Shown piece by piece: positions 10,690 to 44,661 of a stretch of 64,000 nt of DNA. Position 1 is the stretch's first letter, and every line of letters begins with the position of its first letter. The notes below the pieces were generated by a model. It was not told the origin of the DNA. It worked only from the letters and a program-made list of their open reading frames with translations, and did not search any database. This DNA comes from an uncultured bacterium. GTDB lineage: Bacteria > Patescibacteriota > Microgenomatia > UBA1400 > MFAQ01. Location of the stretch: the NCBI GenBank assembly GCA_963980225.1, contig CAXBYW010000005.1:1235-65234 (forward strand), in the 5' to 3' direction. The translations under genes and the position numbers were made by a program.

Positions 10690-10704
10690 CTCTTTAATTG
10701 TATA

Positions 10705-11187: not shown

Positions 11188-11248
11188 TTCATTCTATAGT
11201 AAAAATACAAAGATCATGTAAGAAAGTTTTGAGAGACAGGAGTCTTAC

Positions 11249-15935: not shown

Positions 15936-16727
15936 TTGATATATGATAATGGAACGATGAACATTTATGTTTTAGCTTTATTTATCAGTCTAGGAATAAA
16001 TTTTTTATTCTTTCTCTTAGCTAATGCTTTAAAGACAGATAAGTTTACAGATTTCACATACGGTTTGACCTTTACAGCACTTGCTTTCTTATTTCTTTTT
16101 AAAAATCAAACATTTTACAGGTATCAGCTGTTACTGATGGTAATGGTTGTTTTATGGTCAATAAGACTTATTACTTATCTTTTAATCAGAATTTTGAAAA
16201 TTAAAAAAGACAGTCGTTTCAATAAAATCAGAGAAAATCCCTTAAAATTTTTACAATTTTGGGTTTTCCAAGGTTTAACAGTTTGGATAGTTATGCTTCC
16301 CTCAATCTTTCTACTTAACATAAAAGAACCCAAACCCTTGAATACGATAATGGTTTCAGGAATCATTATTTGGGCTTTTGGACTATTAATAGAAACTATC
16401 TCAGATTGGCAAAAGTTTGGTTTTAAAAACAATCCCAAGAATAAAAACTTATGGATTCAATCAGGGTTATGGAAATACTCAAGACACCCTAATTATTTTG
16501 GCGAAATGTTGGTTTGGTGGGGAATTTTTATTTTTGCCTTACCTTTTTTACAAGGTTTGTCGTGGTTAACCATTTTTAGTCCGATTTTTATTACCTATAT
16601 TCTTATATTTGTCAGCGGTATACCGCTATTGGAAAAAAGATATGATAAAAAATATGCAGATAACAAAAAGTATCAGGAGTACAAAAAGAAAACCAGTACT
16701 TTAATTCCTCTATCTCAAAAGAGATAA
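15936..16727 (+). CDS. DUF1295/ICMT-like (isoprenylcysteine carboxyl methyltransferase / steroid-reductase fold) membrane protein
   Basis: Multi-TM with WKYSRHPNYFGEMLVWWG (RHPxYxG-E signature). Confidence 0.5.
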   Translation: MIYDNGTMNIYVLALFISLGINFLFFLLANALKTDKFTDFTYGLTFTALAFLFLFKNQTFYRYQLLLMVMVVLWSIRLITYLLIRILKIKKDSRFNKIRENPLKFLQFWVFQGLTVWIVMLPSIFLLNIKEPKPLNTIMVSGIIIWAFGLLIETISDWQKFGFKNNPKNKNLWIQSGLWKYSRHPNYFGEMLVWWGIFIFALPFLQGLSWLTIFSPIFITYILIFVSGIPLLEKRYDKKYADNKKYQEYKKKTSTLIPLSQKR

Positions 16728-16734
16728 TCCCCCT

Positions 16735-17127
16735 TTATATTTTTGAAACTATAAAATAGCTAATCAGAGAAACTGAAGCCCCCAAGATAGTTCCCCAAAC
16801 CATATCAACAACAGTGACTACTAATGGCCAGTCTTTGATGGTGGCCAAATTAGTTAAATCATAGGTAGCGTAGGAGATGAGTCCCAGTAGAGCTCCCAAA
16901 AAAAGAGCTTGTGTCCAAGAGTTTTTCTCTAAAGCCGGTAAAACCGAGAAAACAACCAGACCTACTACAAATAATAAGTAAAACAAACCAGCTGCTACAA
17001 AATTGACATTTGTTTTCATGAGGTAGCCTAGTTGTTGGGCGTAAAATTTTCTAGAGATTATGGTAAGCCAGACCATGTCTATGGCTAAAAATACTGGAAG
17101 GGTAATGAAATAAGCTTTGACAAACAT
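16735..17127 (-). CDS. small 4-TM membrane protein (DUF2177-like)
   Basis: Hydrophobicity pattern only. Confidence 0.35.
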   Translation of the reverse strand: MFVKAYFITLPVFLAIDMVWLTIISRKFYAQQLGYLMKTNVNFVAAGLFYLLFVVGLVVFSVLPALEKNSWTQALFLGALLGLISYATYDLTNLATIKDWPLVVTVVDMVWGTILGASVSLISYFIVSKI

Positions 17128-17128
17128 C

Positions 17129-17524
17129 TCAACGATTTAAATAAGTAACACTTAATTGTAAAACAGTTGCAAAACTAACCCACAATAGATATGGTACCTG
17201 AATATAAGTAATCCATTTCTGGTGAGGATATATAGCAACCATTGCCCAAACAAGAGTGATTAAGACGAGAAGAATGTCTATGGCTGCCAAGTAGTTGTTT
17301 CTTAACACAAACTGTAGGGGGGTAAAAGCAAAGTTAAAGATAAGATTAAGAATAAACGGAAGAGCAATAAGGAGTGATATTCTCTTTTGAAAGAAAAGTT
17401 GAAATACCTTGAAAAATGATATGGTAATTAAGATATAAAGAAAAGTCCAAACTGGGCCAAAAAGCCAAGACGGTGGAGACCACGAGGGTCTAATTAGCTG
17501 TTGATACCATTCACTTTCTTGCAT
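17129..17524 (-). CDS. tspO: TspO/MBR tryptophan-rich sensory protein family
   Basis: WYQQLIRPSWSPPSWLFGPVWTFLY matches the TspO N-terminal signature. 5 TM. Confidence 0.6.
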   Translation of the reverse strand: MQESEWYQQLIRPSWSPPSWLFGPVWTFLYILITISFFKVFQLFFQKRISLLIALPFILNLIFNFAFTPLQFVLRNNYLAAIDILLVLITLVWAMVAIYPHQKWITYIQVPYLLWVSFATVLQLSVTYLNR

Positions 17525-17565
17525 ATAAATAAATTATAGCAGTTTTCAAGAGAGCTATTTTTATG

Positions 17566-17636
17566 TTGCCGGGCTAGGATTCGAACCTAGATAACGACTT
17601 TCAGAGAGTCGTGTCCTACCATTAGACGACCTGGCA
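17566..17636 (-). tRNA. tRNA-Gln (anticodon CTG)
   Basis: Manually folded cloverleaf. U1-A72, D-stem GTCT/GGAC, anticodon stem CGACT/AGTCG with loop CUCUGAA, 4-nt variable loop, T-arm CTAGG-TTCGAAT-CCTAG, discriminator A, no encoded CCA. One A5-C68 mismatch. Confidence 0.75.
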
Positions 17637-17676
17637 AGGTTAGTACTCGTAAATTATACCCTCTATTCCTGAAAAA

Positions 17677-18123
17677 CTATTTTTTTAAGGCTTTTACCTC
17701 TTTTCTCAACTTAGCTATCTGCTCATTCATTTCTTTCTGGATCCTCTTGATCTCCATTAGCTGCCTATCTGCTTTCTCGTCCAGCCTTATATCCATCTCT
17801 ATTCTTGCTCGATCACTCTTTCTGAGTCTCTCTTCCTTCTTGTCCCTTGCTTCCTCACCTCTGTTAGACGCCATCAAGAGAAAAATACCAATAAAGATGG
17901 CTTCAAGCGAAACACTAAAGGTAAGCTTGTTAATATCAAAATCAAATACTACCCAGATGGTAAACCACAAGGTGTGTGCTACAACCGCCCACCAACTACC
18001 TAAAAACCAAGAAATTACATCAGTAATTTTGACCATCAGGCTTTTTGTCTTTTTTAAAGGCTTAGCCATAGTTCCGTTTGTGTTCATTGCCTTTACTATA
18101 TTAACAAACCAACTTAGGGTCAA
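17677..18123 (-). CDS. DUF1003-like membrane protein with coiled-coil C-terminus
   Basis: 2 TM helices then charged R/E/K-rich helix. True start may be an internal Met. Confidence 0.4.
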   Translation of the reverse strand: MTLSWFVNIVKAMNTNGTMAKPLKKTKSLMVKITDVISWFLGSWWAVVAHTLWFTIWVVFDFDINKLTFSVSLEAIFIGIFLLMASNRGEEARDKKEERLRKSDRARIEMDIRLDEKADRQLMEIKRIQKEMNEQIAKLRKEVKALKK

Positions 18124-32079: not shown

Positions 32080-32762
32080 ATCCAAATGAAGGTATTTTCC
32101 TAATCGACAAACCAACAGGTCTAACCAGCCACGACGTAGTAGATATAGTAAGAAAGAAGCTTGCCGTTCAAAGAGTCGGCCACACCGGCACGCTCGATCC
32201 ACTAGCCACAGGTCTTTTAATTATCTTGGTCGGCAGACAGCACACCAAAAGACAAGATGAATTCTTAAAGCAAGACAAACAGTACCAGGTAACCATTAAG
32301 TTGGGAGTAGAGACGGACTCTTATGACTCGGATGGTCAGATGGTAAAGACAGCTCCGTTGTCTATCCTTAAAAAAATAACTAAGCAAGATGTATTGCTTG
32401 CCTTAAAAAAATTCGAAGGTGAGATAGACCAAACAGTTCCCTCATTTTCAGCCGTTAAGATAAAGGGTAAAAAGCTCTACCAACTTGCTAGGCAAAAAAA
32501 GACAATAGCTAAGTTACCTGTAAGAACAGTAACAATCACCAGATTAGAACTTCTCTCCTTTGATGACAAGACACACGAGGTTGAGTTATTAGTAGACTGC
32601 ACCTCCGGTACATACATTCGCTCTCTAGCTCATGATCTAGGTAATGCTTTAGGGGTTGGTGGTCACGTCACCAAATTAAGAAGGACAAAAATTGGCCAGC
32701 TTTCTGTTAAACAAGCCACTTCCCCTCAAGACATCTCAAAGACTTCTAGTATTGAGATATAA
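32076..32762 (+). CDS. truB: tRNA pseudouridine(55) synthase
   Basis: GIFLIDKPTGLTSHDVV...VGHTGTLDPLATGLL catalytic Asp motif. Confidence 0.85.
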   Translation: MNPNEGIFLIDKPTGLTSHDVVDIVRKKLAVQRVGHTGTLDPLATGLLIILVGRQHTKRQDEFLKQDKQYQVTIKLGVETDSYDSDGQMVKTAPLSILKKITKQDVLLALKKFEGEIDQTVPSFSAVKIKGKKLYQLARQKKTIAKLPVRTVTITRLELLSFDDKTHEVELLVDCTSGTYIRSLAHDLGNALGVGGHVTKLRRTKIGQLSVKQATSPQDISKTSSIEI

Positions 32763-32765
32763 AAC

Positions 32766-32794
32766 TTACAGGATATTACAAGATAAGGTATAAT
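32766..32794 (+). promoter_or_regulatory. sigma70-like promoter (TTACAG-17-TATAAT) for the CBS gene
   Basis: Hexamers at 32766-32771 and 32789-32794 with 17-nt spacer. AAGGAG RBS before ATG 32881. Confidence 0.4.
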
Positions 32795-32880
32795 CATTTT
32801 TCCCTAACAAACAACTTAAGATTGCACATTGTCAGTTTTTTAAAGTAAGTTCAAAATAGACTCAAAAAAGGAGATGCATC

Positions 32881-33330
32881 ATGTTTACTGTTCGAGGCTT
32901 ATTACAGGAAAAGACGAATAAAGAGTTATTCTCTATCGGTCCAAGAGCGAGGGTTTCTACAGCCAACAACTTGATGAGAAGAAAAAAGATTGGTTCGTTG
33001 CTGGTCATAGAAAAAAACAAATTAGTGGGCATTATGACAATACGTGATTCATTCTTAAAAATAAATCATGATGTGCAAGCAGCCAAAGACACTCTGGTCA
33101 GAGAGGTGATGACACCAAAAGAAGAAGTCATCAGTGTTACCTCTTTTGCAAATATGAATGACTGCCTAGCAGTAATGGATCATCACACGATCCAACATCT
33201 GTTGGTTATAGAAGATGGGGAAGAAGAAGTCATTGGTATAGTTTCAATTAGAGATGTTGCTCGCAGCATTTCTGCCCATCAAGATTATCTTGCGGGGGAA
33301 ATGGGAAACTATAATCTATCAAGGACTTAA
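32881..33330 (+). CDS. CBS-domain pair protein
   Basis: Two CBS repeats (GIMTIRD...; GIVSIRDV). Confidence 0.7.
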   Translation: MFTVRGLLQEKTNKELFSIGPRARVSTANNLMRRKKIGSLLVIEKNKLVGIMTIRDSFLKINHDVQAAKDTLVREVMTPKEEVISVTSFANMNDCLAVMDHHTIQHLLVIEDGEEEVIGIVSIRDVARSISAHQDYLAGEMGNYNLSRT

Positions 33331-33548
33331 AAAAACTACTACAACAACTACATCACAACTAAAGGTTGGCCTTATTCAAAGGTCAACCTTTTTTACTGGT
33401 TTTCTCCTAAATCTATCAAAAACAGCTAATTTGTAGTAGAATACACCTAGCTTAAAGAACAGGTTCGGTCAAAGATTTTCTTTTCACCCTCATTGTTTCA
33501 GAAAGCAATTATTATTAAGGCCCGGATATTCTGGGTAGAAAGATTAGT

Positions 33549-33869
33549 ATGGATGCTCAAAATCCAAAAAAATTATATATAGGCAACCTGCCTTACAGTG
33601 TCACAGAAGATCAGCTTCGTGATCTATTTTCCCAGTTTGGGGAAATCGTAGATCTTAAGCTCATCACAGACAAAATGTCTGGACGCTCAAGAGGTATCGC
33701 CTTTGTAGAGTACACATCCGAAGAGGATGCTAATAAAGCTATAGAAGCTACTAACAACACCGAGCTAGAAGGTAGAGCAATCGTGGTAAACGTTGCCAGA
33801 CCTCCTAAGCCAAGAGGTGAAGGTGGTTTCGGTGGTGGAAACCGCGGTGGCGGTGGCTACGGCAGATAA
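33549..33869 (+). CDS. RRM-type RNA-binding protein with Gly-rich tail
   Basis: RNP2 LYIGNL, RNP1 RGIAFVEY, C-terminal GGFGGGNRGGGGYG. Confidence 0.8.
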   Translation: MDAQNPKKLYIGNLPYSVTEDQLRDLFSQFGEIVDLKLITDKMSGRSRGIAFVEYTSEEDANKAIEATNNTELEGRAIVVNVARPPKPRGEGGFGGGNRGGGGYGR

Positions 33870-33884
33870 GCTTTAGCTTTAACT

Positions 33885-33940
33885 TAAAACCCCTAGAAGG
33901 GATTATCCTAAAAACATAGTCTTTTTCTAGGGGTTTTTTG
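33885..33940 (+). terminator. rho-independent terminator after the RRM gene
   Basis: CCCCTAGAA...TTCTAGGGG stem followed by TTTTTT. Confidence 0.45.
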
Positions 33941-33970
33941 TATTAATTGCCAAATTTTCTACTCTTGGGA

Positions 33971-34900
33971 TTAAGGTCTAGTCAGCTCAGATAACTCACG
34001 ATTAGTTAATTGTTTTTTAAACCAACCCTTTGAGACGTTCATATAGCTTAATAAACCTAACTCATTAAATTTATTTAGTCTTTGAAAACCAGTTTTCTCG
34101 TCAACAGGGAACAAAGATACTTTTTTAGATATTTCTTGTACAAGTTTCAATTGTTGTTTGTTTGCATTAACCTCTTGTCTTAAAACTGCTTTCCACACTG
34201 ATATACTACCCGGCTTGTCGGCAGTATCATTTTCCAGATCGTTAACGCTTTTTGAACTAATAGGTCCAAACTTATTTCTATTTTCCCAAAAACTATCCTC
34301 TTCTATATCAGGATCATTGTAATGACCTTGCTCATGCAGTAAAGCAGACAGATCATCAGCGTTCCTAAGTGAAGTAATAATTATATTCTCAACTCCAACC
34401 ATCGATGTGCCAAATTGTCTCCTTATCTCATTATTAAGTTTATGCTTCTTTTTAGCCATATCCAGCTCCATAATTGACACGCTTTCTTTGGTACCAAGAA
34501 CAAGAGGTCTAACCTCAAAATAAATGTCTGTAAAATGATCTAAAATATCTACATCATTTATTTTTAAAGAAGTAAGTTTCAACGCTTTCACACTATTTTT
34601 TCCTTTATCAATTTTCTTAGGAGACAGCAGCTCAATTTTCATCTGTTGTCCACCTTCCATTACCCCTTCTGTTAATACTGAGCTTACTCTATATCCATTT
34701 TCAATCCTTTTGACTTTTGATTCTTTCCCAAAAATTTCCTTGATTCTTGGAACATCTAAAGGGACTATTCTAAAGTCACGTTCTTGTTGTCCTCCTGCTT
34801 CCATATAGTCAAGTTTAACAAGTTTTAGAAGTAAGTTCCAACAAGGGTGGAAACTCAGTCTAAAGGCACTTTGCAACTTAGATGGTGTAAAATATGTCAT
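33971..34900 (-). CDS. hypothetical protein (element-associated)
   Basis: Longest ORF reaches 35092 but the N-terminal extension is implausible (Phe/Pro-rich). Start set at MTYFTPS (cat 34898-34900). Confidence 0.35.
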   Translation of the reverse strand: MTYFTPSKLQSAFRLSFHPCWNLLLKLVKLDYMEAGGQQERDFRIVPLDVPRIKEIFGKESKVKRIENGYRVSSVLTEGVMEGGQQMKIELLSPKKIDKGKNSVKALKLTSLKINDVDILDHFTDIYFEVRPLVLGTKESVSIMELDMAKKKHKLNNEIRRQFGTSMVGVENIIITSLRNADDLSALLHEQGHYNDPDIEEDSFWENRNKFGPISSKSVNDLENDTADKPGSISVWKAVLRQEVNANKQQLKLVQEISKKVSLFPVDEKTGFQRLNKFNELGLLSYMNVSKGWFKKQLTNRELSELTRP

Positions 34901-34933
34901 TATTAAGCTTGGTGAAGACAAATAGTAAAAAGG

Positions 34934-35200
34934 ATGGACAAAGAAAAGACAATCAATTTCGAAAGTATTAGCAGGAAAGAAAAGATTACGATAATTACTG
35001 AGATACTGGATGATTATTTGACACCAGCAAGGGCGGCTTCTAAAAATATAGAAGAAAATTGGCCAGAATGGAAAAGAGAATATGCAGAACAAAAACGCAA
35101 TGAATATAGAGGGGGCTCTGTATTGAATTTGACCCCAGAAGAAAAAGGTGACCTGAAGGTGGCTCTTTTTGACATACTCTTATTATCAGATTTTACATAA
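34934..35200 (+). CDS. small hypothetical protein (88 aa), divergent from 33971..34900
   Basis: ORF only. Confidence 0.2.
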   Translation: MDKEKTINFESISRKEKITIITEILDDYLTPARAASKNIEENWPEWKREYAEQKRNEYRGGSVLNLTPEEKGDLKVALFDILLLSDFT

Positions 35201-35396
35201 ACCTCACACATAAGATGTTGATGTGTATGTCAACCTGATCATTTGTGACCCTAGACCTTCTGCAACCGAACCAAGTTATTTCAAACCTAGTTGACTTGAT
35301 TCACACCTTCTTGCCCGACACCCAGCAGCTTGCATTTGCTACCTAAAGATACTCCAGTAAAGGTAATTGAACCTGAGTAATGATAAAATAATTGGC

Positions 35397-35915
35397 ATGT
35401 CAGATGAGTTAATTGATCAGGTTGACGAGAACGATGAAATAATAGGATCTATTTTCAAGAGTCAAGCCCATCAGAACCCATCGCTTATCCATAGAGAAGT
35501 GGCGATTGTTGTTTTCAATAAAAAAGGAGAGGTACTACTCCAACAAAGAAGTATGAAAAAAATGAACGACCCTGGTCACTGGAAAATGACAGCCGCAGGG
35601 CATATTGGGGCAGGTGAAGATCCAGAAGAAGCCATCAAGAGAGAAGTGGAAGAAGAACTGGGTATCAAAGTTGAGCCAACTTATTACAAAAAAGTATTTG
35701 AGAAATATAGAGACAAGGAAGCTCGGTTTTTTTGGATCTACTACACAGTCTTAAGTAAGGAACAACCATTGAAATTAGATAAAGAAGAAGTCATGGATGC
35801 CAAGTGGGTTAAATACTCTGGTCTTAAAGAGTTCTCGAAAAACAATAAATACCTCTTATCTAGTCCTTCACACACTAGAATTACTGAAGTAGCTGAAATA
35901 CTAGATTTCACTTGA
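35397..35915 (+). CDS. NUDIX hydrolase
   Basis: Nudix box GHIGAGEDPEEAIKREVEEELGI (Gx5Ex7REuxEExGu). Start at ATG 35397. Confidence 0.7.
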   Translation: MSDELIDQVDENDEIIGSIFKSQAHQNPSLIHREVAIVVFNKKGEVLLQQRSMKKMNDPGHWKMTAAGHIGAGEDPEEAIKREVEEELGIKVEPTYYKKVFEKYRDKEARFFWIYYTVLSKEQPLKLDKEEVMDAKWVKYSGLKEFSKNNKYLLSSPSHTRITEVAEILDFT

Positions 35916-36097
35916 AACCAAATAAAACCTCGATACATAGGTTAAATGTGACCCATACAGGTCCGTCTTCAAACCAAGTATGGCTAGAGCTTAGTAAGTT
36001 ATACCGTGATCTCGAACAGGCACAAAAGAATACATTGAACCATCTCCCATTAAGGCATGGAACATCGTAACAAGAAGGTGATGATAAAATATAAAGC

Positions 36098-36631
36098 ATG
36101 AGTAAGTTTGTAGTCACTTTCGCTGGTCCAGTAGGTAGTTCTAAAACACCAATTGCACATCATCTTAGTTATACTTTTAATCTACCAATTTTTAACAACG
36201 ATACTATTAGAACCGAAGTTGCGGAAGACCTTCTGCAGTTCGATAATGAAGAATTTAGGAAACGAGCCCGAAAAAGAATAAAAAATATTGTAGACAGAGA
36301 CCTTCCATTTATTTATGACGCAAGTGTCGATAGAACTTGGGAGGAAATAAAACAAATTTTAATAAATAATAACTACAGATGGTTTATTATTAACCTTGAC
36401 CTAAGTAAATCTTTTTTAGTTAAGTTGTATCAGGTGAAAAATTATGAAGATTCTCTTAGTGAAATAGATCGCTTCATTGCTGAGCATCATAAATTTCTCA
36501 AGAAACATAAAAATGACATTTCACTCAATATAAATGATCAAAATTTTTCAAATAGATTAAGTATTTCAGCAAGTAAGCTTGCAAAATGGTTAAAAAACCA
36601 AATAAATCCCGACACACCTGTTAAATTGTGA
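36098..36631 (+). CDS. small P-loop NTPase / kinase-like protein (AAA_33/CPT-like size)
   Basis: Walker A GPVGSSKT at residues 10-17, 177 aa. Confidence 0.5.
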   Translation: MSKFVVTFAGPVGSSKTPIAHHLSYTFNLPIFNNDTIRTEVAEDLLQFDNEEFRKRARKRIKNIVDRDLPFIYDASVDRTWEEIKQILINNNYRWFIINLDLSKSFLVKLYQVKNYEDSLSEIDRFIAEHHKFLKKHKNDISLNINDQNFSNRLSISASKLAKWLKNQINPDTPVKL

Positions 36632-36704
36632 ACCACCCTTATTTTAATTCGAACGGAAGGAAGAATCAAACTCCGTTTATTTCGAACGAGGAAATAATGC
36701 AATT

Positions 36705-36720
36705 CCTGGTTGCAACCAGG
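36705..36720. repeat. 16-bp perfect palindrome CCTGGTTGCAACCAGG in 160-bp intergenic region
   Basis: Read directly. Adjacent duplicated TTCGAACG motifs (36648-36690). Confidence 0.6.
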
Positions 36721-36793
36721 CAAATACAAGATATTAAGGTAGAGCATAGCATAACTTAATGACCACCGCTTTCTAAGTGGGTTATAATGAAGT

Positions 36794-37618
36794 ATGACAA
36801 AGAAGGAAGAGTTTGCATTGCTTTGCCGAGAATACTTTAAGGGTAAGGATTGCAAACTTGATAAATTGAATTCTACCAAGCTTCAGCCTTACTATTTTTG
36901 GAAAAACAAAGCAGATAACGTTTTCGAATATGTCCTCTTTGACTTAGATAAAAATGGAATATTTTATGATATTGAGTTTTATACTTCACCATACATAAAA
37001 ATTAGAAAAACAATTCATATCGACCACGCTGAAACTCCACTTTTTAGCTATTTTGAAATAACCTATCCGGACAAAAAATCCAAGATGTCATACGCAAATC
37101 TACTTAGAATAGGAGAAGAGACTGAGTTTTCAACAAAAGATTATTTTGAGTATTTCAAGTATGCATACGAAACTTGCAAGACAGATATCTTTGATAAAAA
37201 CCTTAAAGACTTGAAAAAGAAAAGAAATAATTATCGTGTCAACCTAGAAACAATGAACCGTATATGGGAAAAATACCAAGAGATTGGAGAACAACCCTTC
37301 GAAGATTTTATTTCAAGCAATACGGCTTTTTATATGGACAGTTTTGAATTTTTCAGAAAGGACAACCCACTCGATATCGAACTCGGTTTGCAAACTTTCA
37401 ACAGGCAGTTTTATACAAAAGCTTTTGCCAGCAAGCTTAAAGATGATTATGAATCAATGAGAAAATTTGTGTTTTATGCAATTCCTGAAATATATAAACA
37501 CTTCGAAGATTTTTGTTATCCTCATTATAAGAATGATAAGTTTGACACGGTACACCTAACAAAATTTCAGAGTACTGCAGTTGCCTACTTTGCAGAAAAA
37601 CGTTTGTTTTCGAAATAA
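36794..37618 (+). CDS. hypothetical protein, very AT-rich, Tyr/Phe/Lys-rich (274 aa)
   Basis: ORF with composition distinct from its neighbours. No motif. Confidence 0.4.
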   Translation: MTKKEEFALLCREYFKGKDCKLDKLNSTKLQPYYFWKNKADNVFEYVLFDLDKNGIFYDIEFYTSPYIKIRKTIHIDHAETPLFSYFEITYPDKKSKMSYANLLRIGEETEFSTKDYFEYFKYAYETCKTDIFDKNLKDLKKKRNNYRVNLETMNRIWEKYQEIGEQPFEDFISSNTAFYMDSFEFFRKDNPLDIELGLQTFNRQFYTKAFASKLKDDYESMRKFVFYAIPEIYKHFEDFCYPHYKNDKFDTVHLTKFQSTAVAYFAEKRLFSK

Positions 37619-37830
37619 TCAAACATTACTATTGCCTAGAAATGTGTCGTTTGGATAGTAACTTGTCCCTCAAACTGTTTCTCTGGTATTTAGTCATGAT
37701 AGAAGTAGTTACTCCTTGTATTGTCTGGATTCACTCGGGGAGTGAAATATTGCCCTTGAAAGTAGTTGCTGGTAAAGTTTAATAACCCCAGCCTACTCCT
37801 TATAACTTTCAGATTGTATTTTAAACAATT

Positions 37831-39696
37831 TTGCATACAACCAAAAAGCACAAAATTGGCTGGGACGGGTCTAGTATTGCCTTCCCTGTCTTTGACAAGA
37901 GTGGAGATATTGTCAATATTCGTCACAGGAGAAGTCCTAATAAAACCAAGGGGCAGAAATTCTGGAACGAGAAAGGTGGTAAGGCTTCGTTGTTTAACAT
38001 CCAAACACTTAAAGATAATTCGGAGTCCACAATCATCTGTGAAGGAGAGTTTGACGCTATGGTTGCTGAACAGTTTGGATATTCAGCGGTAAGCAGTACA
38101 GCTGGCGCAGGAACATTCAAGGAAGGTTGGGTAAAGGAATTCGAGGAGGTAAAAACTGTCTACATTTGTTATGACACCGATGAAGCCGGAAAAGATGGAG
38201 CCAAGAAGGTGGCAAAACTATTTGAAAGCAAGGCAAGGATAGTCGAGTTACCCCACAAGGGTGATAAAAAGGTTGACCTCACTGACTATTTTGCAAAACT
38301 AAAACACAATCGAGAGGACTTCGATAAATTACTCCAAAAAGCGAAGCCGCTAAAAACAAAATATGAGCTGGTTGAAGATGTATCTGATGAAGAAGTTCAT
38401 CCAGCAGTAGATTATAAGCACGACAGACTGTTCTACACCTTGACGCTGCCAGTAAAAGCTAATGATGAGCCCAAATCGGCTGCGGTAACAATCTCTGGTG
38501 GCCACAAGGTCGGATACGATACTAATAGTCTTGGGTATGTGAGTATTGATGGTAGAGAAATAAAGATTAAAAACGTTTCACAAATACCTAATGCCTACGC
38601 CCGATGGAGCACAAAGGATTTGAGCAGATATTTGAAAAGTAACAAGACAGTGACACCTGCGCTACCTTTTATGGAAATAAAGGAAGTACTGAACAAGTTC
38701 GTAGACTTCAGGAATGAGAAAGATGCTGACATAATAACTCTTTGGCTCATTGGCACCTACTGCTTCCCTGTGTTTGACGCTTACCCATACCTCTATTTCG
38801 TAGGAGTCAAAAGAAGCGGAAAAACAAAGACTCTTCTTATCATTGAAAAGCTGTCATTTAATTCTGCTATGTCTAGCGATATGTCCTCTGCGGTTTTGTT
38901 TAGGATAGTTGAAGCAAAGCGAGCCACTGTCGCACTTGACGAGAGTGAGCAGCTATCAGATAAATCCAGGAAGAAAGACCTGCGATTGATACTCAACTCC
39001 GGCTACAAGCGAGGTGCTCCTGCATACAGAGCAAAGAAGCAGAAGGATGGCGGATTTACCCTAGAGGCGTTTGAGGTTTATAGTCCCAAAGCGATTGCAA
39101 ACATATCAGGGATGAATGATGTTCTTGAGGATAGAGCTCTCACCATCACAATGGTTAGGACAAACAACAAAAAGGTTGGAAACACTGCTGTAACTGAAAA
39201 GGTCGAGGATTGGAAATATCTGCGCTCACTGCTGTATGAATTTGCACTCGAATACGCAAGTCAAATATCTGATGTTTACCACAACGACCCTGGCGTTAAT
39301 GAGCTATTAAACAGGCAAAATGAACTCTGGAGCCCACTTCTGAGCATTGCAAAGGTAGTCGGGAAGGACTTGTTTGATGAGATCAACAAGGAGGCTAAAA
39401 AGAGGGCAGAAGAAGCATCTGGTGCAGATCTGGAGGATTTTGACTCTTCCGTGCTTCTTGCCCTTAGAGAACTTTCACCGGAAGAAGTTGAGACTACGCT
39501 AACAAATAAGCAAATCAAGAGTAAGGCTCATGAGTACTTGGAAGATGACCAGCGAGAGTATCTGACAAGTCGTGGTATTGGTGCTGCACTCAAAAGGTTT
39601 GGTATCAAAGGAAAAAAGATACAAGGCTACTGGAGATACGCAATAAAACCCGATGAGATCCAGGACCTAGTAAAGCGATATGGAGTAGATGTTTGA
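37831..39696 (+). CDS. Toprim-domain DNA primase fused to P-loop (helicase/primase-C-like) domain
   Basis: Toprim CEGEFDAM...YICYDTDEAGKDGA (E...DxD). Walker A GVKRSGKTK. Upstream region has AGTAGTT repeats and a TCACTC/GAGTGA hairpin. Confidence 0.65.
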   Translation: MHTTKKHKIGWDGSSIAFPVFDKSGDIVNIRHRRSPNKTKGQKFWNEKGGKASLFNIQTLKDNSESTIICEGEFDAMVAEQFGYSAVSSTAGAGTFKEGWVKEFEEVKTVYICYDTDEAGKDGAKKVAKLFESKARIVELPHKGDKKVDLTDYFAKLKHNREDFDKLLQKAKPLKTKYELVEDVSDEEVHPAVDYKHDRLFYTLTLPVKANDEPKSAAVTISGGHKVGYDTNSLGYVSIDGREIKIKNVSQIPNAYARWSTKDLSRYLKSNKTVTPALPFMEIKEVLNKFVDFRNEKDADIITLWLIGTYCFPVFDAYPYLYFVGVKRSGKTKTLLIIEKLSFNSAMSSDMSSAVLFRIVEAKRATVALDESEQLSDKSRKKDLRLILNSGYKRGAPAYRAKKQKDGGFTLEAFEVYSPKAIANISGMNDVLEDRALTITMVRTNNKKVGNTAVTEKVEDWKYLRSLLYEFALEYASQISDVYHNDPGVNELLNRQNELWSPLLSIAKVVGKDLFDEINKEAKKRAEEASGADLEDFDSSVLLALRELSPEEVETTLTNKQIKSKAHEYLEDDQREYLTSRGIGAALKRFGIKGKKIQGYWRYAIKPDEIQDLVKRYGVDV

Positions 39697-39933
39697 GTAG
39701 ACAACAAGTAGACGTATGATAACAACAAATAGTCCAGCAACAAGGCAAAAAGCGAGAAAAGAAGTAGACATTGCTGGGAAAACACATCACCCTGACTCAT
39801 TTTCTATCCGATACATATTCCTGGTTCAGGGCATGGTTATAAGATTTGCTGCAAATGTCTACCGAAAATTCATAAAAGTGCCTGTTTATTGGGGAAAACA
39901 AGTAGAAAGTATGTCTACCTAAAGTCTACTAAT

Positions 39934-40452
39934 ATGTCTAAAAACTACAAAAAATTAATCGAAAATGCCAAAGCTGAATTGCTGATAGCGAAAGACGCAG
40001 GCGTGCGGGAGCAAACATTGAATGCAATCAAAGATCGTATTAAGCACCTGAGACGAGAGTTCAAGCAAGAAAAGAGGAACAAGAACATCAAACATTTCGG
40101 AAGTTGGCCAGACGAGATTCTTATGCAGCGTTACGACGAAGTAACCAAATTCACAACTGAAAGGGAAAAAGACATTCGAGGTATTGGACTTTTTAACAGT
40201 GAGGATCGTGAGGAGGATATGAAAAAGTTCGAAGACTCGCTTCGTCTAGTTGAAATACTTGAGGATGAAGGTAGAAGAAGGAAGATGCTCTACTTTATGA
40301 CTGACAAAGAACGAGCAACAGTCATAAAAGATATTTTCGGAGTAGAACCAAAGAAGATGACTGACGAAGAAAAGAAGTTGCACGAGCAAGCGGAAAGGAA
40401 AGGAGCAACAGTCTACACAATTGAGGCTGGAAGGGTGTCTGTCCTCGCGTGA
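39934..40452 (+). CDS. hypothetical charged protein
   Basis: ORF. Start at ATG 39934 (MSKNYKK). Confidence 0.35.
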   Translation: MSKNYKKLIENAKAELLIAKDAGVREQTLNAIKDRIKHLRREFKQEKRNKNIKHFGSWPDEILMQRYDEVTKFTTEREKDIRGIGLFNSEDREEDMKKFEDSLRLVEILEDEGRRRKMLYFMTDKERATVIKDIFGVEPKKMTDEEKKLHEQAERKGATVYTIEAGRVSVLA

Positions 40453-40506
40453 GGCAGCCTTACCCTCCCTACCCACAAGCGTAGCTAGTAATTTAAACCT
40501 AAAACT

Positions 40507-40881
40507 ATGAAATGTGCTTATACGAAAACTAATGGAGGTAAGTGTGGAGCTAATTCTATGAAAGCTTCCGGGTATTGCTTTGCCCACAACCCAAAAACAA
40601 GGGAAAAGCACAGCTTGGCAGTTGCAAAAGGTGGAAAGCTGTCTAAAAAGACTAGGCTTGAGCTACCTCCGGTAAAGATAAAGAAACCAGAAGATGTGGT
40701 CGATCTTCTCGAAGAAACGATAAACGGAATACGCGACGGCTCAATTCCTCCAAACGTAGCAAACACAATCGCATATGTATGCTCACACGCACTTAAAGCA
40801 ATAGAGCTGTCCAAATACGCAAACAAACTAGAGAGTGTTGAGCGAATACTAATGGAGAGAAAAATAACTAAACAATCATGA
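40507..40881 (+). CDS. hypothetical protein with N-terminal Cys/His cluster (CxxxxxxxC...CxxH)
   Basis: MKCAYTKTNGGKCGANSMKASGYCFAHNP. Confidence 0.35.
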   Translation: MKCAYTKTNGGKCGANSMKASGYCFAHNPKTREKHSLAVAKGGKLSKKTRLELPPVKIKKPEDVVDLLEETINGIRDGSIPPNVANTIAYVCSHALKAIELSKYANKLESVERILMERKITKQS

Positions 40882-41306
40882 GTTACAACAAATTGACACG
40901 AAAACAGTTATTTTCTGGTGAAGTTAGCTACACACTAGATGATTTTGCAAAGGATTTCAGGAAAGAAGTAATAAATGTCTGGGGACGAAAAAGGCTTGAT
41001 ACAAAAAACGGACAATCAAACACCCTGTTCCAAGGATTGCTGCTGATAATAATATTTGCATCACAGGGCAAGTCCCTCTGGGAGATAAACGAAGTATTGC
41101 TTGGCAAGAACACGAAAGATTTGGAAGACAACCTTGGGTCAATTGTCAAAATGTACGAAAAGGAAATCAAAATCCTTGAAGGGCTACAAATGAATATGTT
41201 TTTGGAAAACTTGAAAAAATATCACCTGTCAGACTCCCTCAACCTACAACTTCTAAATACTAATTTTCGAGAGTGGTTCGTCAAAATAATGGAACCCCAG
41301 GACTAA
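40878..41306 (+). CDS. hypothetical protein
   Basis: ORF with ATGA overlap to the upstream gene. Confidence 0.35.
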   Translation: MSYNKLTRKQLFSGEVSYTLDDFAKDFRKEVINVWGRKRLDTKNGQSNTLFQGLLLIIIFASQGKSLWEINEVLLGKNTKDLEDNLGSIVKMYEKEIKILEGLQMNMFLENLKKYHLSDSLNLQLLNTNFREWFVKIMEPQD

Positions 41307-41308
41307 CT

Positions 41309-42208
41309 ATGAAAAACACACTAAACATCAAAACACTCGCGAGAGGCATGAGAGCAGAAGATAAAGCAAAATTGTTGTTTGCAGATAGAAACAAGCGGTC
41401 TGAAACATCAGGGAAAGAAGGATTACTTACTCCAGAGGAAGAGGATGCGCTTATCAAAGATGCGCAAGAACTGCATCAGATAAACGAACTTAACCGACTA
41501 AGTAGGCTTTACAACATCGCATCGTTGATCTTTCTGGATATACAGTCGGCCTGTTTGTATTTCAGGATTGCAGAAGGGAGGCTGGTCACAATACTTACAG
41601 GAATGATCTTGGTTGGTGAATCAAGTGACACATTAGGTCAAGCAATATACGACCAAGCATTACACGGATACACCGAAAAACAGCTAGAAGAAAAGAAGTA
41701 TCAAGATGAGATTGATTTGAAAGCTGCTAAGCTGCGAAAGAAATATGGTGGCAACGGATTATCCGCCGTATACGATTATTTCGAACCATCATTAAGAGGT
41801 GGCAGTTACTTCTCTGCAAAAAGGAAGGTCGAGGTTAGTCAGCCAAATAAGTTGCTTCAAAAGGCATTCATTCAAACAATTAAGGAAGTAAAGAGGTTTA
41901 ACAAACAAGTGTTTCAGTGGAATTATATCGAATCAAAAGCTGGGATAGACCTTTTGAGCGATAGAGAGAGAAAAATCATTTCTGGTTTCCAAAAAGATAT
42001 CAATGATTTTGTCAATTTAGGGGGGTATCTAGGATTTATACAAATTTATGTCGAATTTGAAGACAAAAAGATATTGAAATTTGAAAAACTAGAAGAACCG
42101 GAATTCACTTCTGTCATAAAAGACATGAAGAAGGCAACGGATTTGAGTAAAAAGACCAGAAACAGGGCCCGCGAAGAGGTCGAAAACATAATTCAAAGAA
42201 AACAGTAA
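41309..42208 (+). CDS. hypothetical protein (~300 aa)
   Basis: ORF. ATG 41309 abuts the previous stop. Confidence 0.4.
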   Translation: MKNTLNIKTLARGMRAEDKAKLLFADRNKRSETSGKEGLLTPEEEDALIKDAQELHQINELNRLSRLYNIASLIFLDIQSACLYFRIAEGRLVTILTGMILVGESSDTLGQAIYDQALHGYTEKQLEEKKYQDEIDLKAAKLRKKYGGNGLSAVYDYFEPSLRGGSYFSAKRKVEVSQPNKLLQKAFIQTIKEVKRFNKQVFQWNYIESKAGIDLLSDRERKIISGFQKDINDFVNLGGYLGFIQIYVEFEDKKILKFEKLEEPEFTSVIKDMKKATDLSKKTRNRAREEVENIIQRKQ

Positions 42209-42209
42209 T

Positions 42210-42455
42210 ATGGCTACAAAAAAGGAAAATATTGATAAATACATAGATGCAATGATCGATATCATTATTGACTCATACATAGCCAAAAAGCGTAGAAAAC
42301 GAGATAGGAAATGTGCTAAACTGGATATGAGCTCAAATTTTGCCGAAGGGAATTTTGATGGCCGTCTTGGACAAATCCCTTCGGATTTGAGCTCACCAGG
42401 GCGGCCTTTAAAGTTGTATGGAAAAGAAAAAAGCAATACTGTATCTGAGGTTTAG
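42210..42455 (+). CDS. small basic protein upstream of the recombinase (candidate regulator/RDF)
   Basis: 81 aa with KKRRKRDRK. Overlaps the recombinase start. Confidence 0.25.
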   Translation: MATKKENIDKYIDAMIDIIIDSYIAKKRRKRDRKCAKLDMSSNFAEGNFDGRLGQIPSDLSSPGRPLKLYGKEKSNTVSEV

Positions 42456-44007
42456 TGACACTAAGCAATATGGCAATACAAGCATTGACTCGCAAGAAAA
42501 GATTTGCAGAAATGCCTGTGAAGTCGAGAGTTATAGTGTTGTTAAGATAATTAAAAATGAGGCGGTTTCCGCAAGCAAGACCAATACTCAAAGAGTAGCT
42601 GAACTTCTGGAGTTTTGTAAAGAGCGAAAAGGTAAATTTGATGTCCTCATGGTCTATAAATTGGATCGGTTCGCCAGATCGCAAGAACAACATCACTGGT
42701 TACGAGGACAAATTCTCAAACTTGGCGTAATACTTCGATCAGCAACAGAAAAAATCGACGAAAGTCCCTCCGGTAGATTGGTTGAGGGAGTACTTGCTGC
42801 AGTAAACGAATATGACAATGAGGTAAAAAGAGAAAGAGTGAAGATTGCAATGTGGTCTAGGGTAGAACATGGTCTTTATCCCTGGTCACCACCGACTGGA
42901 TATATACCCAAGGTGGTTCCTGGAGTGAAATTGTCACCCAGGATTATTGATAATACTTGCTGCAATGAGATTGTGAGCCTTTTTGAGCGATACTCGACAG
43001 GTCTTTACACAAAAGCCGATCTGGCTAAAGAATATAGCAAGAAAGAGATAAAGAATTACAAGGGTAAAACCCTGAAATTTTCGATTCAAACATTAGATAA
43101 TATTCTTAACAACATCTTTTATACAGGATATCTTAAATACAAAGATGGAAGACTGATTGTGGGTAAACACAAACCATTAATATCCTACGCAATGTTTGAA
43201 AAATGCCAGGAAGTACAAGCACAGCTATCAAACAACGCTAATCACAAGTATCTGAGACACAATCCTGACTTTCCACTTCGAAGATTTGTGTTGTGTGGTG
43301 ATTGCAACGGTCCACTTACTGCCTGTTGGTCAAAATCAGGAAGTGGTAAAAAGCACGCTTACTACTATTGTAAAAGTAAAGATTGTGAGATGTATTCGAA
43401 GATGATAAAGAAAGCTGATCTTGAAAACGGATTTATGGAGTATCTATCAAAAGTAAAACCCACCAAGAAGTTTGTGAAACGGTTCAATCAAAGATTTCTA
43501 AAAAGGTATAAAGAACGGGAACTGGAAATACGAGGTGATTTCTTGCGTAAAGCCGACAACATAAAGGAAATGGAGAAGGAATTAGGTTGGATAGTCAAGC
43601 AAGGTAGAAAGGGAAAGTTGCCAGAGAGAGTTGTAACAAAGCAAGTTGAAGAACTGGATCAGAAAATAATTCTTGCAAAATCACAGCTTTCAGAAGAACA
43701 CGCTGAGGAGCTGAATATCAAAGGATTGCTGTCTTATGCAGAAACATTTATTCGAACGCTAGAAAAAAACTGGTTTGACGCACAAAATGAAGTAAGAATC
43801 AGACTTCAAAGGGTAATTTTCCCCGATGGTGTCGTTTACCAAAATAATCAATTTTCGAACGCCAAATTATGCCGTGCTTTTGAGATAATCAACGACTTTG
43901 CGACCAACTACTCAAAAGATGTGACCCCGGCGGGATTTGAACCCGCGATCTCCAGGATGAGAACCTGGTGTCCTAAACCGCTAGACGACGGGGCCGTTTG
44001 TGGCTGA
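42418..44007 (+). CDS. large serine recombinase (integrase)
   Basis: Resolvase catalytic motif ILYLRFSDTKQ (Y-R-x-S-x-x-x-Q). Recombinase domain and zinc ribbon CGDCNGPL...YYYCKSKDC. C-terminal 25 codons are the reverse complement of the tRNA-Glu 3' half. Confidence 0.8.
   Translation: MEKKKAILYLRFSDTKQYGNTSIDSQEKICRNACEVESYSVVKIIKNEAVSASKTNTQRVAELLEFCKERKGKFDVLMVYKLDRFARSQEQHHWLRGQILKLGVILRSATEKIDESPSGRLVEGVLAAVNEYDNEVKRERVKIAMWSRVEHGLYPWSPPTGYIPKVVPGVKLSPRIIDNTCCNEIVSLFERYSTGLYTKADLAKEYSKKEIKNYKGKTLKFSIQTLDNILNNIFYTGYLKYKDGRLIVGKHKPLISYAMFEKCQEVQAQLSNNANHKYLRHNPDFPLRRFVLCGDCNGPLTACWSKSGSGKKHAYYYCKSKDCEMYSKMIKKADLENGFMEYLSKVKPTKKFVKRFNQRFLKRYKERELEIRGDFLRKADNIKEMEKELGWIVKQGRKGKLPERVVTKQVEELDQKIILAKSQLSEEHAEELNIKGLLSYAETFIRTLEKNWFDAQNEVRIRLQRVIFPDGVVYQNNQFSNAKLCRAFEIINDFATNYSKDVTPAGFEPAISRMRTWCPKPLDDGAVCG
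43922..43995 (-). tRNA. tRNA-Glu (anticodon CTC)
   Basis: Manual cloverleaf: acceptor GGCCCCG/CGGGGTC (one GU), D-stem GTCT/GGAC, anticodon stem CCAGG/CCTGG, loop UUCUCAU, T-arm GCGGG-TTCAAAT-CCCGC, discriminator A. Confidence 0.7.
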
Positions 44008-44045
44008 GCTAGGCTCGCTTGAGGCTAATTTTACCCTGAAAAGTA

Positions 44046-44074
44046 TTGACAATCAACCCAAACTGACATAGAAT
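44046..44074 (+). promoter_or_regulatory. sigma70-like promoter TTGACA-17-TAGAAT upstream of greA
   Basis: Hexamers at 44046-44051 and 44069-44074. Confidence 0.4.
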
Positions 44075-44190
44075 ATCACTTTACGGTAAGAAATCTGCCC
44101 GATTTTTTAAGATTAAGATAAACAAGGAAAGCGTGCCCCTTAAGAACAAAACCTTAGGGAAGCCCACTTTTGCTAAAAGAAAACAATAAT

Positions 44191-44661
44191 ATGACCATAA
44201 ACAGTAATAAAGTCCAATTAACCTCTGAAGGTTACAACGAACTAGTAAAAGAGCTCAAGAACCTAAGGGAGGTAATGCTGCCTAAGGCAATCAGTCGTAT
44301 TGCTTCTGCTAGATCATTAGGTGACCTATCAGAAAACTACGAATATCAATCTGCTAAAGAGGATCACTTAACTCTAATTAGCAGAATAGAAGAGCTGACA
44401 GACACCATAAAACGTAGTGAAGTAATCAAAAAAAATACTAACAATGATGCTGTTAATATTGGTCATGAGGTAGAGGTTACTATCAACAGCTCTGATCACG
44501 TATTTACCATAGTAGGAGAATGGGAGGCAGATCCTAAAATCAAGAAAATCAGTCACAAATCACCATTAGGAACAGCTCTCATAGGTAAAGCAGTCGGCGA
44601 CAAGGTAGAAGTAGAAGCCCCAGCTGGCATGGTCATCTACACCATCAAGACCATTAAATAA
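44191..44661 (+). CDS. greA: transcription elongation factor GreA
   Basis: GDLSENYEYQSAKE motif, 156 aa from ATG 44191. Confidence 0.85.
   Translation: MTINSNKVQLTSEGYNELVKELKNLREVMLPKAISRIASARSLGDLSENYEYQSAKEDHLTLISRIEELTDTIKRSEVIKKNTNNDAVNIGHEVEVTINSSDHVFTIVGEWEADPKIKKISHKSPLGTALIGKAVGDKVEVEAPAGMVIYTIKTIK

Follow-up and report, generated by a model that had tools for sequence, protein, structure and literature searches.

A probable 7.3-kb integrative element of a Patescibacteria chromosome, located at the 3′ end of tRNA-Glu and encoding a large serine recombinase

To our knowledge, the textbook rule is that serine integrases do not target tRNA genes, and the mobile elements of CPR/Patescibacteria are poorly known. 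When genomic islands were mapped with TIGER/Islander, 14 of 297 serine-integrase islands were assigned to t(m)RNA genes; these cases were judged too few, and experimental proof was requested (Mageeney et al., 2020, PMC7192596). In tycheposons, a tyrosine recombinase was present in 910 of 937 elements (97%) and a large serine recombinase (LSR) in the rest (Hackl et al., bioRxiv 10.1101/2020.12.28.424599). Here we followed up a sequence-only reading of a window of 64,000 nucleotides from an uncultured bacterium, which had proposed an integrative element with a serine integrase at the 3′ end of tRNA-Glu and had called such targets uncommon; the literature does describe them as rare and unproven (PMC7192596). 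The proposal was upheld by the domains of the recombinase, the recurrence of its overlap with tRNA genes and the relatives that lack the block. We consider it likely that the window holds a 7.3-kb integrative element, plasmid-like or satellite-like, that was inserted into a Patescibacteria chromosome by an LSR at the 3′ end of tRNA-Glu(CTC).

The recombinase gene (42418-44007, + strand) was identified from its ORF, Pfam and PHROG matches and homologues, and it encodes 529 aa in the integrated state. Judged by its domain architecture, the protein is an LSR of the integrase type. A resolvase serine motif, a recombinase domain and a Cys zinc ribbon had been recognised in this ORF by eye, and Pfam returned all three: Resolvase at the N-terminus (PF00239, residues 6-149, E 2.6e-25), Recombinase (PF07508, E 8.4e-10, 39.3 bits against a cut-off of 21.1) and, after the latter, Zn_ribbon_recom (PF13408, E 2.5e-06, 28.2 bits against a cut-off of 25.3). 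The protein also matched PHROG 95 'integrase' (2.8e-68) and the solved structures 9iu2, 4kis and 3bvp, with residues 216-320 corresponding to the C-terminal domain of A118 integrase (4kis). The nucleophile, Ser13 in YLRFSDTKQ, lies in a column at least 90% conserved among 62 homologues, and every column invariant in these family members was retained.

At the right edge of the element, the LSR gene comes last and overlaps attR and the tRNA-Glu(CTC) gene, which is intact and represents the host attachment target (43922-43995, - strand; Rfam 64.9 bits; ARAGORN 43921-43995). Residues 502-529, the last ~28-29 codons, are antisense to the full tRNA gene and to 12 nt past its 5′ end; the overlap noticed at the outset was real, although it is not limited to the 3′ half of the tRNA as then described. 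Among 107 full-length homologues (32-78% identity, mostly CPR), the C-terminal peptide is antisense tRNA in one fixed frame in 91, and an antisense tRNA stands at the end of the LSR ORF in 48 of 68 assessable metagenome loci, with 13 tRNA species involved. V502 is found in 103 of the 107 homologues and E508 in 91; their codons are the antisense of C72-A73-N74 and T54-T55-C56, respectively, at a spacing of 18 nt. Since the same reading frame recurs in so many homologues and loci, the overlap is not due to chance, and it is a trait of this LSR family. At least 520 LSR relatives were confirmed by tblastn in JGI metagenomes, and the recombinase belongs to a large and apparently undescribed group that uses tRNA gene ends as landing sites. 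Members are abundant in CPR bacteria and are present in high-GC bacteria too.

To place the locus, we compared it with related genomes. The window and five relatives (L192, a JGI contig, L196, L197 and L198; LysS 75-83% identical) have a backbone in common, which runs from Lon to TruB and RRM, through a variable interval, to tRNA-Glu, greA and lysS. The 10-kb block is absent from all five. In L196 and L197 the tRNA-Glu is unoccupied, with no LSR, and differs from that of the window by one base. For the genes in 33880-43920, the related loci contain no homologues, and the content of the interval between RRM and tRNA-Glu varies between the relatives; this interval is a hypervariable hotspot. Core genes had been seen on both sides of the block, and they were found as described. 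The RRM protein gene (33549-33869, + strand) is the last of the conserved left backbone and is followed by a hairpin and T-run (33889-33942), while the conserved right backbone starts with the greA promoter and gene (44041-44661, + strand), the promoter being TTGACA-17-TAGAAT at 44046-44074 (11/12 matches). The closest related element, L188, has an LSR 78% identical to that of the window and likewise occupies a tRNA-Glu, in genomic surroundings that are unrelated; only the module from primase to LSR is common to the two.

The right attachment site, attR (43900-43945, + strand), has the core TGTGA at 43920-43924, which comprises the 2 nt 3′ of the tRNA and the complement of A73, C72 and U71. 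The last part of the LSR coding sequence serves as its P arm, and its B′ half-site is made of the acceptor 3′ strand and T arm of tRNA-Glu, with the T-loop box GATTTGAAC at 43934-43942. A reciprocal half-site had been expected somewhere in 33.9-36.8 kb, and a candidate attL was obtained within this range, at ~36.63 kb (36605-36655, + strand). It has the core TGTGA at 36627-36631, a B arm formed by the end of the gene kin177 and a P′ arm, ACCACCCTTATTTTAATTCGAAC, with the box AATTCGAAC at 36646-36654. The left end of the element reads GTGA/AC-N14-TTCGAAC, and the same motif marks the left ends of two related elements (L032 and L033). In ~2 Mb, GTGAAC-N14-TTC[GA]AAC occurs only three times (window 36628, L032 1121 and L033 5425), always in an intergenic gap 6-10 kb upstream of a family LSR and in the same orientation. 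To the left of the motif in L033 lie the host gene guaB and a GNAT gene, also of the host. Four contigs that have no tRNA join a near-identical motif straight to the 3′ end of the LSR, an attP-like arrangement.

Between core and T-loop-like box, the distance is greater by 5 bp in P′ than in B′ (index 23 versus 18), and this shift was observed in the window, L032, L033, L048, L066 and L084. It agrees with the prediction of the published model of LSR attP and attB sites, in which attB has its ZD motif closer to the centre by 5 bp (Rutherford et al., 2013, PMC3783163). The predicted attP contains CAAAAGATGTGA joined to ACCACCCTTATTTTAATTCGAAC, and the predicted attB contains TTGTGA joined to CCCCGGCGGGATTTGAACC. 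No convincing mirror copy of the box was found in the P and B arms, and the B arm of the window differs from the empty site of L196 except for TTGTGA. A direct repeat of the tRNA end was sought at the left boundary and the left-end motif was sought in the closest relatives, L188 and L189; neither was found.

With these boundaries, the element is probably 36632-43924 (7.3 kb) and consists of o274, a primase gene, six small ORFs and the LSR. The first gene inside it, o274 (36794-37618, + strand), is an ORF of no assigned function without a homologue in L188 and has a promoter-like site upstream (36759-36788). The replication gene had been read as a Toprim and P-loop primase/helicase, and it does encode a primase-like protein of 621 aa (37831-39696, + strand) with Pfam matches to Toprim_2 and DUF3631, a Walker-A-like GVKRSGKT and 69% identity to the L188 primase. 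Five ORFs with no assigned function follow at 39716-42208 (+ strand); o68, o172 and o124 are common to L188, whereas o142 and o311 are not. The start of the LSR is overlapped by o81 (42210-42455, + strand), to which an ORF in the same position in L188 is 55% identical, and L189 and L195 likewise have small ORFs that extend across the start of the LSR. From its position, o81 is a candidate directionality factor or regulator.

We propose that the LSR joined the attP of a circular element to an attB located at the very last bases of tRNA-Glu(CTC), on its 3′ side. The cut would fall inside GTGA, the complement of U71-C72-A73 plus one base, and the exact crossover is a prediction. A cut at this place, at the final 3 nt of the tRNA, would leave tRNA-Glu intact and host-derived, and no tRNA 3′ half is duplicated. 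The recombinase gene itself would supply the P arm of attP with the final part of its coding sequence, and upon integration the ORF would run on antisense through the tRNA and gain a new C-terminal tail, giving 529 aa in the integrated state against a predicted 544 aa in the excised one. Owing to this overlap of attP with the gene end, the tail would switch between an element-encoded and a tRNA-antisense form. The near-universal T-loop box TTCGAAC is probably recognised by the zinc-ribbon domain. In the tRNA (B′) this box is closer to the crossover by 5 bp than in P′, and such a difference is the published means by which serine integrases distinguish attB from attP. A universal T-loop box would also explain the use of many different tRNAs by the relatives. 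LSRs need a directionality factor for excision, and the element may still be active and carry one. More tentatively, with chances that we put a little below even, the family may be a large, undescribed LSR clade dedicated to tRNA genes, for which the geometry of acceptor end and T-loop constitutes attB, the zinc-ribbon domain reads the box, elements hop between isoacceptors and the C-terminal tail changes form on integration.

The extent of the element could also be drawn differently. The sequence-only reading had a ~10-kb element beginning at ~33950, and its placement at the tRNA-Glu 3′ end is supported; its extent probably has to be revised, a start at 36632 being the most likely. Were the whole block of ~10 kb (33880-43924) one element, attL would be expected directly behind the RRM terminator, with the NUDIX and kinase-like genes as cargo. 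Synteny with L192 does stop at 33879 and resume only at 44041, the genes between lack homologues in related loci, as described above, and the left stretch is low in GC. However, no att-like motif or tRNA-end repeat was found near 33.9 kb, the family-specific P′ motif lies at 36628, L188 has nothing in common left of the primase, and in L045 a homologue of kin177 has an RRM gene as its neighbour and belongs to the host side. The NUDIX hydrolase gene, correctly recognised beforehand (35367-35915, E 2.5e-23 in Pfam), encodes an IDI/YfcD-like protein of a housekeeping type. We regard the single 10-kb element as improbable. The left stretch (33880-36631, GC 0.348), with o277 (- strand), o88, the NUDIX gene and kin177, is probably outside the LSR element and may be an older island or a set of lineage-specific genes. 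A start at 36632 leaves the NUDIX and kinase-like genes outside the element, together with two ORFs of no assigned function, and the two named genes would no longer count among its genes as they had before. The small P-loop kinase itself was recovered as a weak match only (kin177, Cytidylate_kin2, E 0.001, below the cut-off). GC is similarly low on either side of the proposed attL (kin177 0.31, o274 0.32). The left stretch forms a separate low-GC part of the same hypervariable hotspot.

As for the nature of the element, it may be fixed and immobile. A dead remnant of one ancestral integration, with excision lost and the ORF kept by chance or for another role, is unlikely on balance but carries real weight, and it is compatible with the main explanation of the element's origin. 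The element was present at 99.9-100% identity in each of the 25 same-species contigs, which come from many samples, and none of them has an empty site; neither an excised circle nor an attP junction of the window element was seen, no circular contig was found among the relatives, and the P and B arms lack clear symmetry. Such fixation says little, however, as the population is nearly clonal. Also against a dead element are the intact 529-aa ORF, which keeps the family-invariant columns, with the Ser13 column nearly invariant, and the intact replication and small-ORF module, collinear with L188. A cryptic prophage or phage satellite, with structural or hijacking genes too divergent to recognise, would account for the layout of integrase, primase and small ORFs of no assigned function, which is P4-like/PICI-like, for the PHROG matches of the primase to phage primases and for that of o124 to a family of unknown function (PHROG 9747). 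Nevertheless, just as none had been recognised from the letters, no capsid, portal, terminase, tail, terS or MCP family was found with Pfam and PHROGs in the ten largest ORFs and three small ones; a tailed phage would need more than 7.3 kb, and the nearest LSR is 30% identical in IMG/VR and 25.6% in GenBank phages, where identity reaches at most ~25%. This possibility is quite improbable. A non-integrative resolvase or invertase, adjacent to the tRNA by coincidence, has the slightest chance of all: PHROG 125 'DNA invertase' matches the N-terminal part of the LSR, and L035 has an 87-nt inverted repeat starting exactly at the core, but Recombinase and zinc-ribbon domains define integrase-type LSRs, the same-frame overlap with tRNA ends occurs in dozens of unrelated contexts and related genomes have empty sites. 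By the domains, the recurrent overlap and the empty sites, it is close to excluded.

If the preferred explanation, an LSR element integrated at tRNA-Glu, holds for the whole clade, a group with readable att logic would overturn the rule against tRNA targets, and the idea that the T-loop acts as the ZD motif would become directly testable with 50-bp substrates. A universal attB of acceptor end and T-loop would let the clade hop between tRNA isoacceptors, and transcription of the recombinase head-on to that of the tRNA could be a built-in switch of integration state. For CPR/Patescibacteria, this would add a concrete class of integrative elements that are small, replicating and recurrent. For engineering, a near-universal tRNA feature as natural attB might offer ready-made sites in many genomes, and it would be a specificity concern as well.

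Among known systems, SCCmec is similar in that the CcrAB LSRs insert an island at the extreme 3′ end of rlmH/orfX without inactivating the gene, and its site tends to gather successive elements; it differs in having a protein-coding target, often two recombinase subunits, staphylococcal hosts and no known overlap between recombinase ORF and target. The phage LSRs (Listeria A118/LI Int, Bxb1, phiC31, TP901-1 and SPbeta) have the same resolvase/recombinase/zinc-ribbon architecture as the window LSR and short att sites with a small common core, as proposed here, and for LI integrase a ZD-type box was modelled 5 bp closer to the centre in attB (PMC3783163), as in B′ relative to P′ of the window. 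In contrast to them, the window LSR targets a tRNA gene 3′ end and not a protein-coding gene or intergenic site, its ORF ends inside the target with a C-terminus predicted to change with the integration state, and its carrier, a 7-kb element of a CPR bacterium, has no phage genes. Tycheposons and PICI-like elements (Hackl et al., bioRxiv 10.1101/2020.12.28.424599) are likewise small elements at tRNA hotspots in streamlined genomes, with an edge integrase, a primase/helicase-type replication gene and variable cargo, and here too the hotspot content varies among relatives. The window element matches this set with its tRNA-Glu target, LSR and Toprim/DUF3631 primase; it differs in that its integrase is a serine recombinase, it has no terS, capsid or other packaging gene and it resides in CPR, whereas tycheposons were described in Prochlorococcus. 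The t(m)RNA serine islands of TIGER/Islander are a phenomenon of the same kind; their description includes neither a clade nor an att architecture, nor any overlap of ORF and tRNA (PMC7192596), whereas here the overlap defines the clade.

Around the insertion, we compared the window with related genomes whose LysS was 75-83% identical, in which the backbone Lon-LGT-aaRS-GFO-ATPcone/Mrr-TruB-RRM ... tRNA-Glu-greA-lysS-serS was found. The gene content of their RRM-to-tRNA interval was wholly different from that of the window: MscS and a GIY-YIG gene in contig L192, AhpC, YecM and unknown ORFs in a JGI contig, SNase and two Fic genes in L196/L197, and restriction-modification and AAA_14 genes in L198. 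DNA synteny between L192 and the window stopped at 33879 and restarted at 44041. In L196/L197 the tRNA-Glu, essentially that of the window with one base different, was unoccupied and was followed by its own terminator hairpin. The element was thus absent at the same backbone in relatives rather than syntenic in all of them, and its description as an insertion was upheld. Among same-species contigs, 25 of 25, from many samples and 99.9-100% identical, carried the element; because all were near-identical and element-bearing, no presence/absence polymorphism was seen among them. Since the more distant MAGs L010 and L011 carried other serine recombinases at the same tRNA-Glu, the RRM-to-tRNA-Glu interval is an integration hotspot.

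Further repeats were observed in this interval. In L192, the 3' end of tRNA-Glu recurs as a direct repeat of 18 nt (8551-8568 and 8922-8940; GTGACCCCATAGAGAATC, with its end in the T-loop) on either side of a lone GIY-YIG nuclease gene beside the tRNA, with no integrase left. In L198, several copies of GGAATGACAATGTGAC (7635-7663, 9165-9178 and the tRNA-Glu 3' end at about 9225-9241, the last abutting the tRNA end) enclose an AAA_14/DUF4143 gene and resemble the scars that repeated integration at one and the same core would leave. The otherwise collinear L192, L196 and JGI contig lack the CBS-domain gene that the window carries at 32722-33410, between truB and RRM; this gene constitutes a second small lineage-specific insertion.

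The large serine recombinase (LSR) is encoded by an ORF of 529 aa at 42418-44007 (+), with the Pfam domains Resolvase (E 2.6e-25), Recombinase (8.4e-10) and Zn_ribbon_recom (28.2 bits, cut-off 25.3); it matched PHROG 95 'integrase' at 2.8e-68 and the solved serine integrases 9iu2, A118 (4kis) and TP901-1 (3bvp). The tRNA-Glu(CTC) occupies 43922-43995 of the minus strand (ARAGORN; Rfam 64.9 bits), so that the LSR ORF runs antisense across all of the tRNA and 12 nt past it. The antisense overlap described earlier was therefore real, but its restriction to the 3' half of the tRNA was not. The Toprim_2/DUF3631 primase, the NUDIX gene and the RRM gene were all borne out by ORF and domain checks, as was the greA promoter (TTGACA-17-TAGAAT, 44046-44074), and no recognizable capsid or terminase genes were found with Pfam and PHROGs, again as first read. 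The T-run 3' of the tRNA-Glu is made of LSR codons (plus strand AAAAGATGTG, 43911-43936), and a promoter-like site upstream of the tRNA (44056-44028, -) shares bases with the greA promoter, which points the other way; transcription of tRNA and recombinase is therefore convergent.

To place the left boundary, we used the related elements. The closest, L188 (LSR 78% identical), also lies at a tRNA-Glu, in another genomic context, and shares with the window the primase (69%), the ORFs o68, o172 (75%), o124 (62%) and o81 (55%) and the LSR; left of the primase the two have nothing in common. No repeat of the window tRNA 3' end was found at the left boundary; tRNA 3'-end direct repeats of 12-29 nt were present in the distant relatives L062, L098, L084, L066 and L055, and also in L192. 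At 36628, exactly at the stop codon of the weakly kinase-like gene kin177, lies GTGAACCACCCTTATTTTAATTCGAAC. Across the roughly 2 Mb of sequence that was fetched, the pattern GTGAAC-N14-TTC[GA]AAC had just three occurrences (window 36628, L032 1121, L033 5425), each time in an intergenic gap 6-10 kb upstream of a family LSR in the same orientation; these LSRs were 52-53% identical, and in L033 the housekeeping gene guaB and a GNAT gene stood immediately left of the motif. A near-identical motif with N13 spacing was joined straight to the LSR 3' end in L029, L035, L039 and L194, which have no tRNA there and a different conserved tail (...V-NVFEKIRTYF), as would be expected of an unintegrated attP; an Rfam search of the tRNA-free tails of L029, L035 and L039 found nothing.

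The core TGTGA is common to both junctions, attL (36627-36631) and attR (43920-43924), and consists of the 2 nt downstream of the tRNA and the complement of A73, C72 and U71. The same junction is marked by the L198 direct repeats, which end in ...ACAATGTGAC at the tRNA end, and by an L035 inverted repeat that begins exactly at TGTGAAC. Because of the 36628 motif, the common core and these two junctions, the element was placed at 36632-43924 (7293 bp), a boundary that we regard as probable, instead of starting near 33950 with a length of about 10 kb as previously supposed. Our confidence was held at that level because no convincing mirror motif was found in the left-hand arms (P, B) and because the left-end motif was not found in the closest relatives, L188 and L189. 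The suggested search for a reciprocal att half-site thus yielded a candidate at about 36.63 kb, though not a clear mirror motif in these arms. No circular contigs were found among the relatives. The L035 inverted repeat (87 nt, 2757-2843 and 12564-12650, 98% complementary), whose start coincides with the core at the 3' end of the LSR, encloses 9.7 kb with defence-like genes (methyltransferase, LexA-like, GIY-YIG, ATPase); it may represent a segment able to invert, a second att site or an error of assembly. Copies of TTCGAACG at 36648-36655 and 36681-36688, 33 nt apart at the left end of the element, with a third inside the LSR gene at 43853-43860, could be extra putative binding sites or chance matches.

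The 2.75 kb left of this boundary (33880-36631) hold o277 (-), o88, an IDI/YfcD-like NUDIX gene and kin177. This stretch was absent from all relatives compared, its GC was 0.348 against 0.389 in the flanks, and it contained no recombinase gene; a kin177 homologue, 52% identical, was found in L045, directly after an RRM gene and on the host side of a different element. The stretch may be an older island or lineage-specific DNA. A segment at 35149-35192 (also 35230-35243), GTGACC ... ACTCTTATTATCAGATT, matched 16 of 17 nt from the T-stem to the anticodon-stem of the tRNA-Glu variant of L192, L010 and L011, with a score that 0 of 500 shuffles reached. We did not retain a decayed tRNA half of this type as the reading: Rfam detected no tRNA there, and the segment pairs with an inverted copy close by into a local hairpin. 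It may have been left by an older integration, or the hairpin may have arisen by chance. That the element itself had supplied the tRNA 3' half, by crossover in the anticodon loop, was first suggested because all differences between the window tRNA-Glu and the L192/L010/L011 type lie 3' of the anticodon. This was rejected, since L196 has essentially the same tRNA without the element.

In the crossover that we favor instead, exchange would fall in the final 3 nt of the tRNA, which would thus be kept without any duplication. The predicted junctions are CTACTCAAAAGATGTGAACCACCCTTATTTTAATTCGAAC for attP and CCTGTTAAATTGTGACCCCGGCGGGATTTGAACC for attB; on integration the LSR would gain the tail TPAGFEPAISRMRTWCPKPLDDGAVCG, and the excised form is predicted to have 544 aa and to end ...DVNHPYFNSNGRKNQ...EHSIT. 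Before integration, the end of kin177 would have coincided with the last three bases of the convergent tRNA; in the reconstructed attB (36590-36631 + 43925-43945), the kin177 stop TGA lies within the GTGA core. An 8-bp inverted repeat across this attB (AAATCCCG / CGGGATTT) was set aside because it is not centred on the core. The distance from the G of GTGA to the start of the T-loop box GAAC is 18 nt in the tRNA B' arm and 23 nt in the P' arm, and the 5-bp outward shift was also found in L032, L033, L048, L066 and L084. The zinc-ribbon domain would read this box and the recombinase domain the acceptor end; the universality of the box would account for the range of tRNA targets.

The overlap was then followed across the protein family. 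In 5.8 billion proteins, a homologue search listed 120 matches of 32-78% identity, among which the few named ones were mostly from CPR (Woesebacteria, Curtissbacteria, Shapirobacteria, Pacebacteria). Nearly all C-termini read ...V-(T/S)-(P/R)-x-G-(F/I/L/V)-E-P..., with V502 in 103 and E508 in 91 of the 107 full-length members aligned. The Val502 codon GTG is the antisense of C72-A73-N74 and the Glu508 codon GAA that of T54-T55-C56, 18 nt apart as in any canonical tRNA; these two residues, the most conserved of the C-terminus, are therefore dictated by the tRNA, read in one fixed frame. At least 520 relatives were confirmed in JGI metagenomes, and in the 80 loci assessed (27-61% identity) the LSR ORF ended in an antisense tRNA in 48 and in none in 20, the contig end cutting the remaining 12. 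The targets comprised 13 tRNA species (Glu, Lys, Ala, Gln, Met, Leu, Ile, Arg, Val). A single Patescibacteria contig, L189, carried two such LSR elements in mirror orientation, at tRNA-Glu and tRNA-Gln (10001-11585 and 16366-17918), and a high-GC IMG/VR provirus (L110) had the same arrangement at tRNA-Arg. Two proteins annotated as Chloroflexota or Caldilineaceae (P0078 and P0084, 44-48% identical) lack a tRNA-antisense tail after the conserved Val, so not every clade member lies at tRNA genes.

The element encodes a primase-type replication gene and the LSR; a small conserved ORF that overlaps the start of the LSR gene may, judged by position only, be a directionality factor. The other ORFs of the element matched no family of known function in Pfam, PHROGs, NCBIfam or defence-system scans, the last two giving only NUDIX and DnaG-like matches in the cargo, and no phage structural genes were found. 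The best viral LSR matches reached 30% identity in IMG/VR and 25.6% among GenBank phages. The replication module is exchangeable, because the first L189 element (about 5.5 kb) has a Prim-Pol/PriCT_1 replicase instead, along with a DUF5659 gene.

Neither the enzyme family nor the notion of islands targeted to tRNA genes is new. Serine integrases were described as 'not known for targeting tRNA genes' in a survey that placed 14 of 297 serine-integrase islands at t(m)RNA genes, compared with 44.5% for tyrosine integrases, and whose authors called for experimental proof (Mageeney et al. 2020, PMC7192596). Our literature search found no paper on a tRNA-dedicated LSR clade or its att logic, nor on CPR serine-integrase elements at tRNA genes; the novelty appears to lie in bringing the two together, in how abundant this is in CPR, in the fusion of ORF and tRNA and in the geometry of the T-loop box. 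In LI integrase, the zinc-ribbon-domain motif occupies attP positions 16-24 and attB positions 11-19, a difference that lets the enzyme tell attP from attB (Rutherford et al. 2013, PMC3783163). In the predicted window sites the T-loop box likewise lies 5 bp nearer the centre in attB than in attP, and the boxes would fall on exactly the LI positions if the crossover is the GA of GTGA. As a whole, the element appears to work like an integrative plasmid or a tycheposon/PICI-like element, although the latter mostly use a tyrosine recombinase and the window element a serine recombinase.
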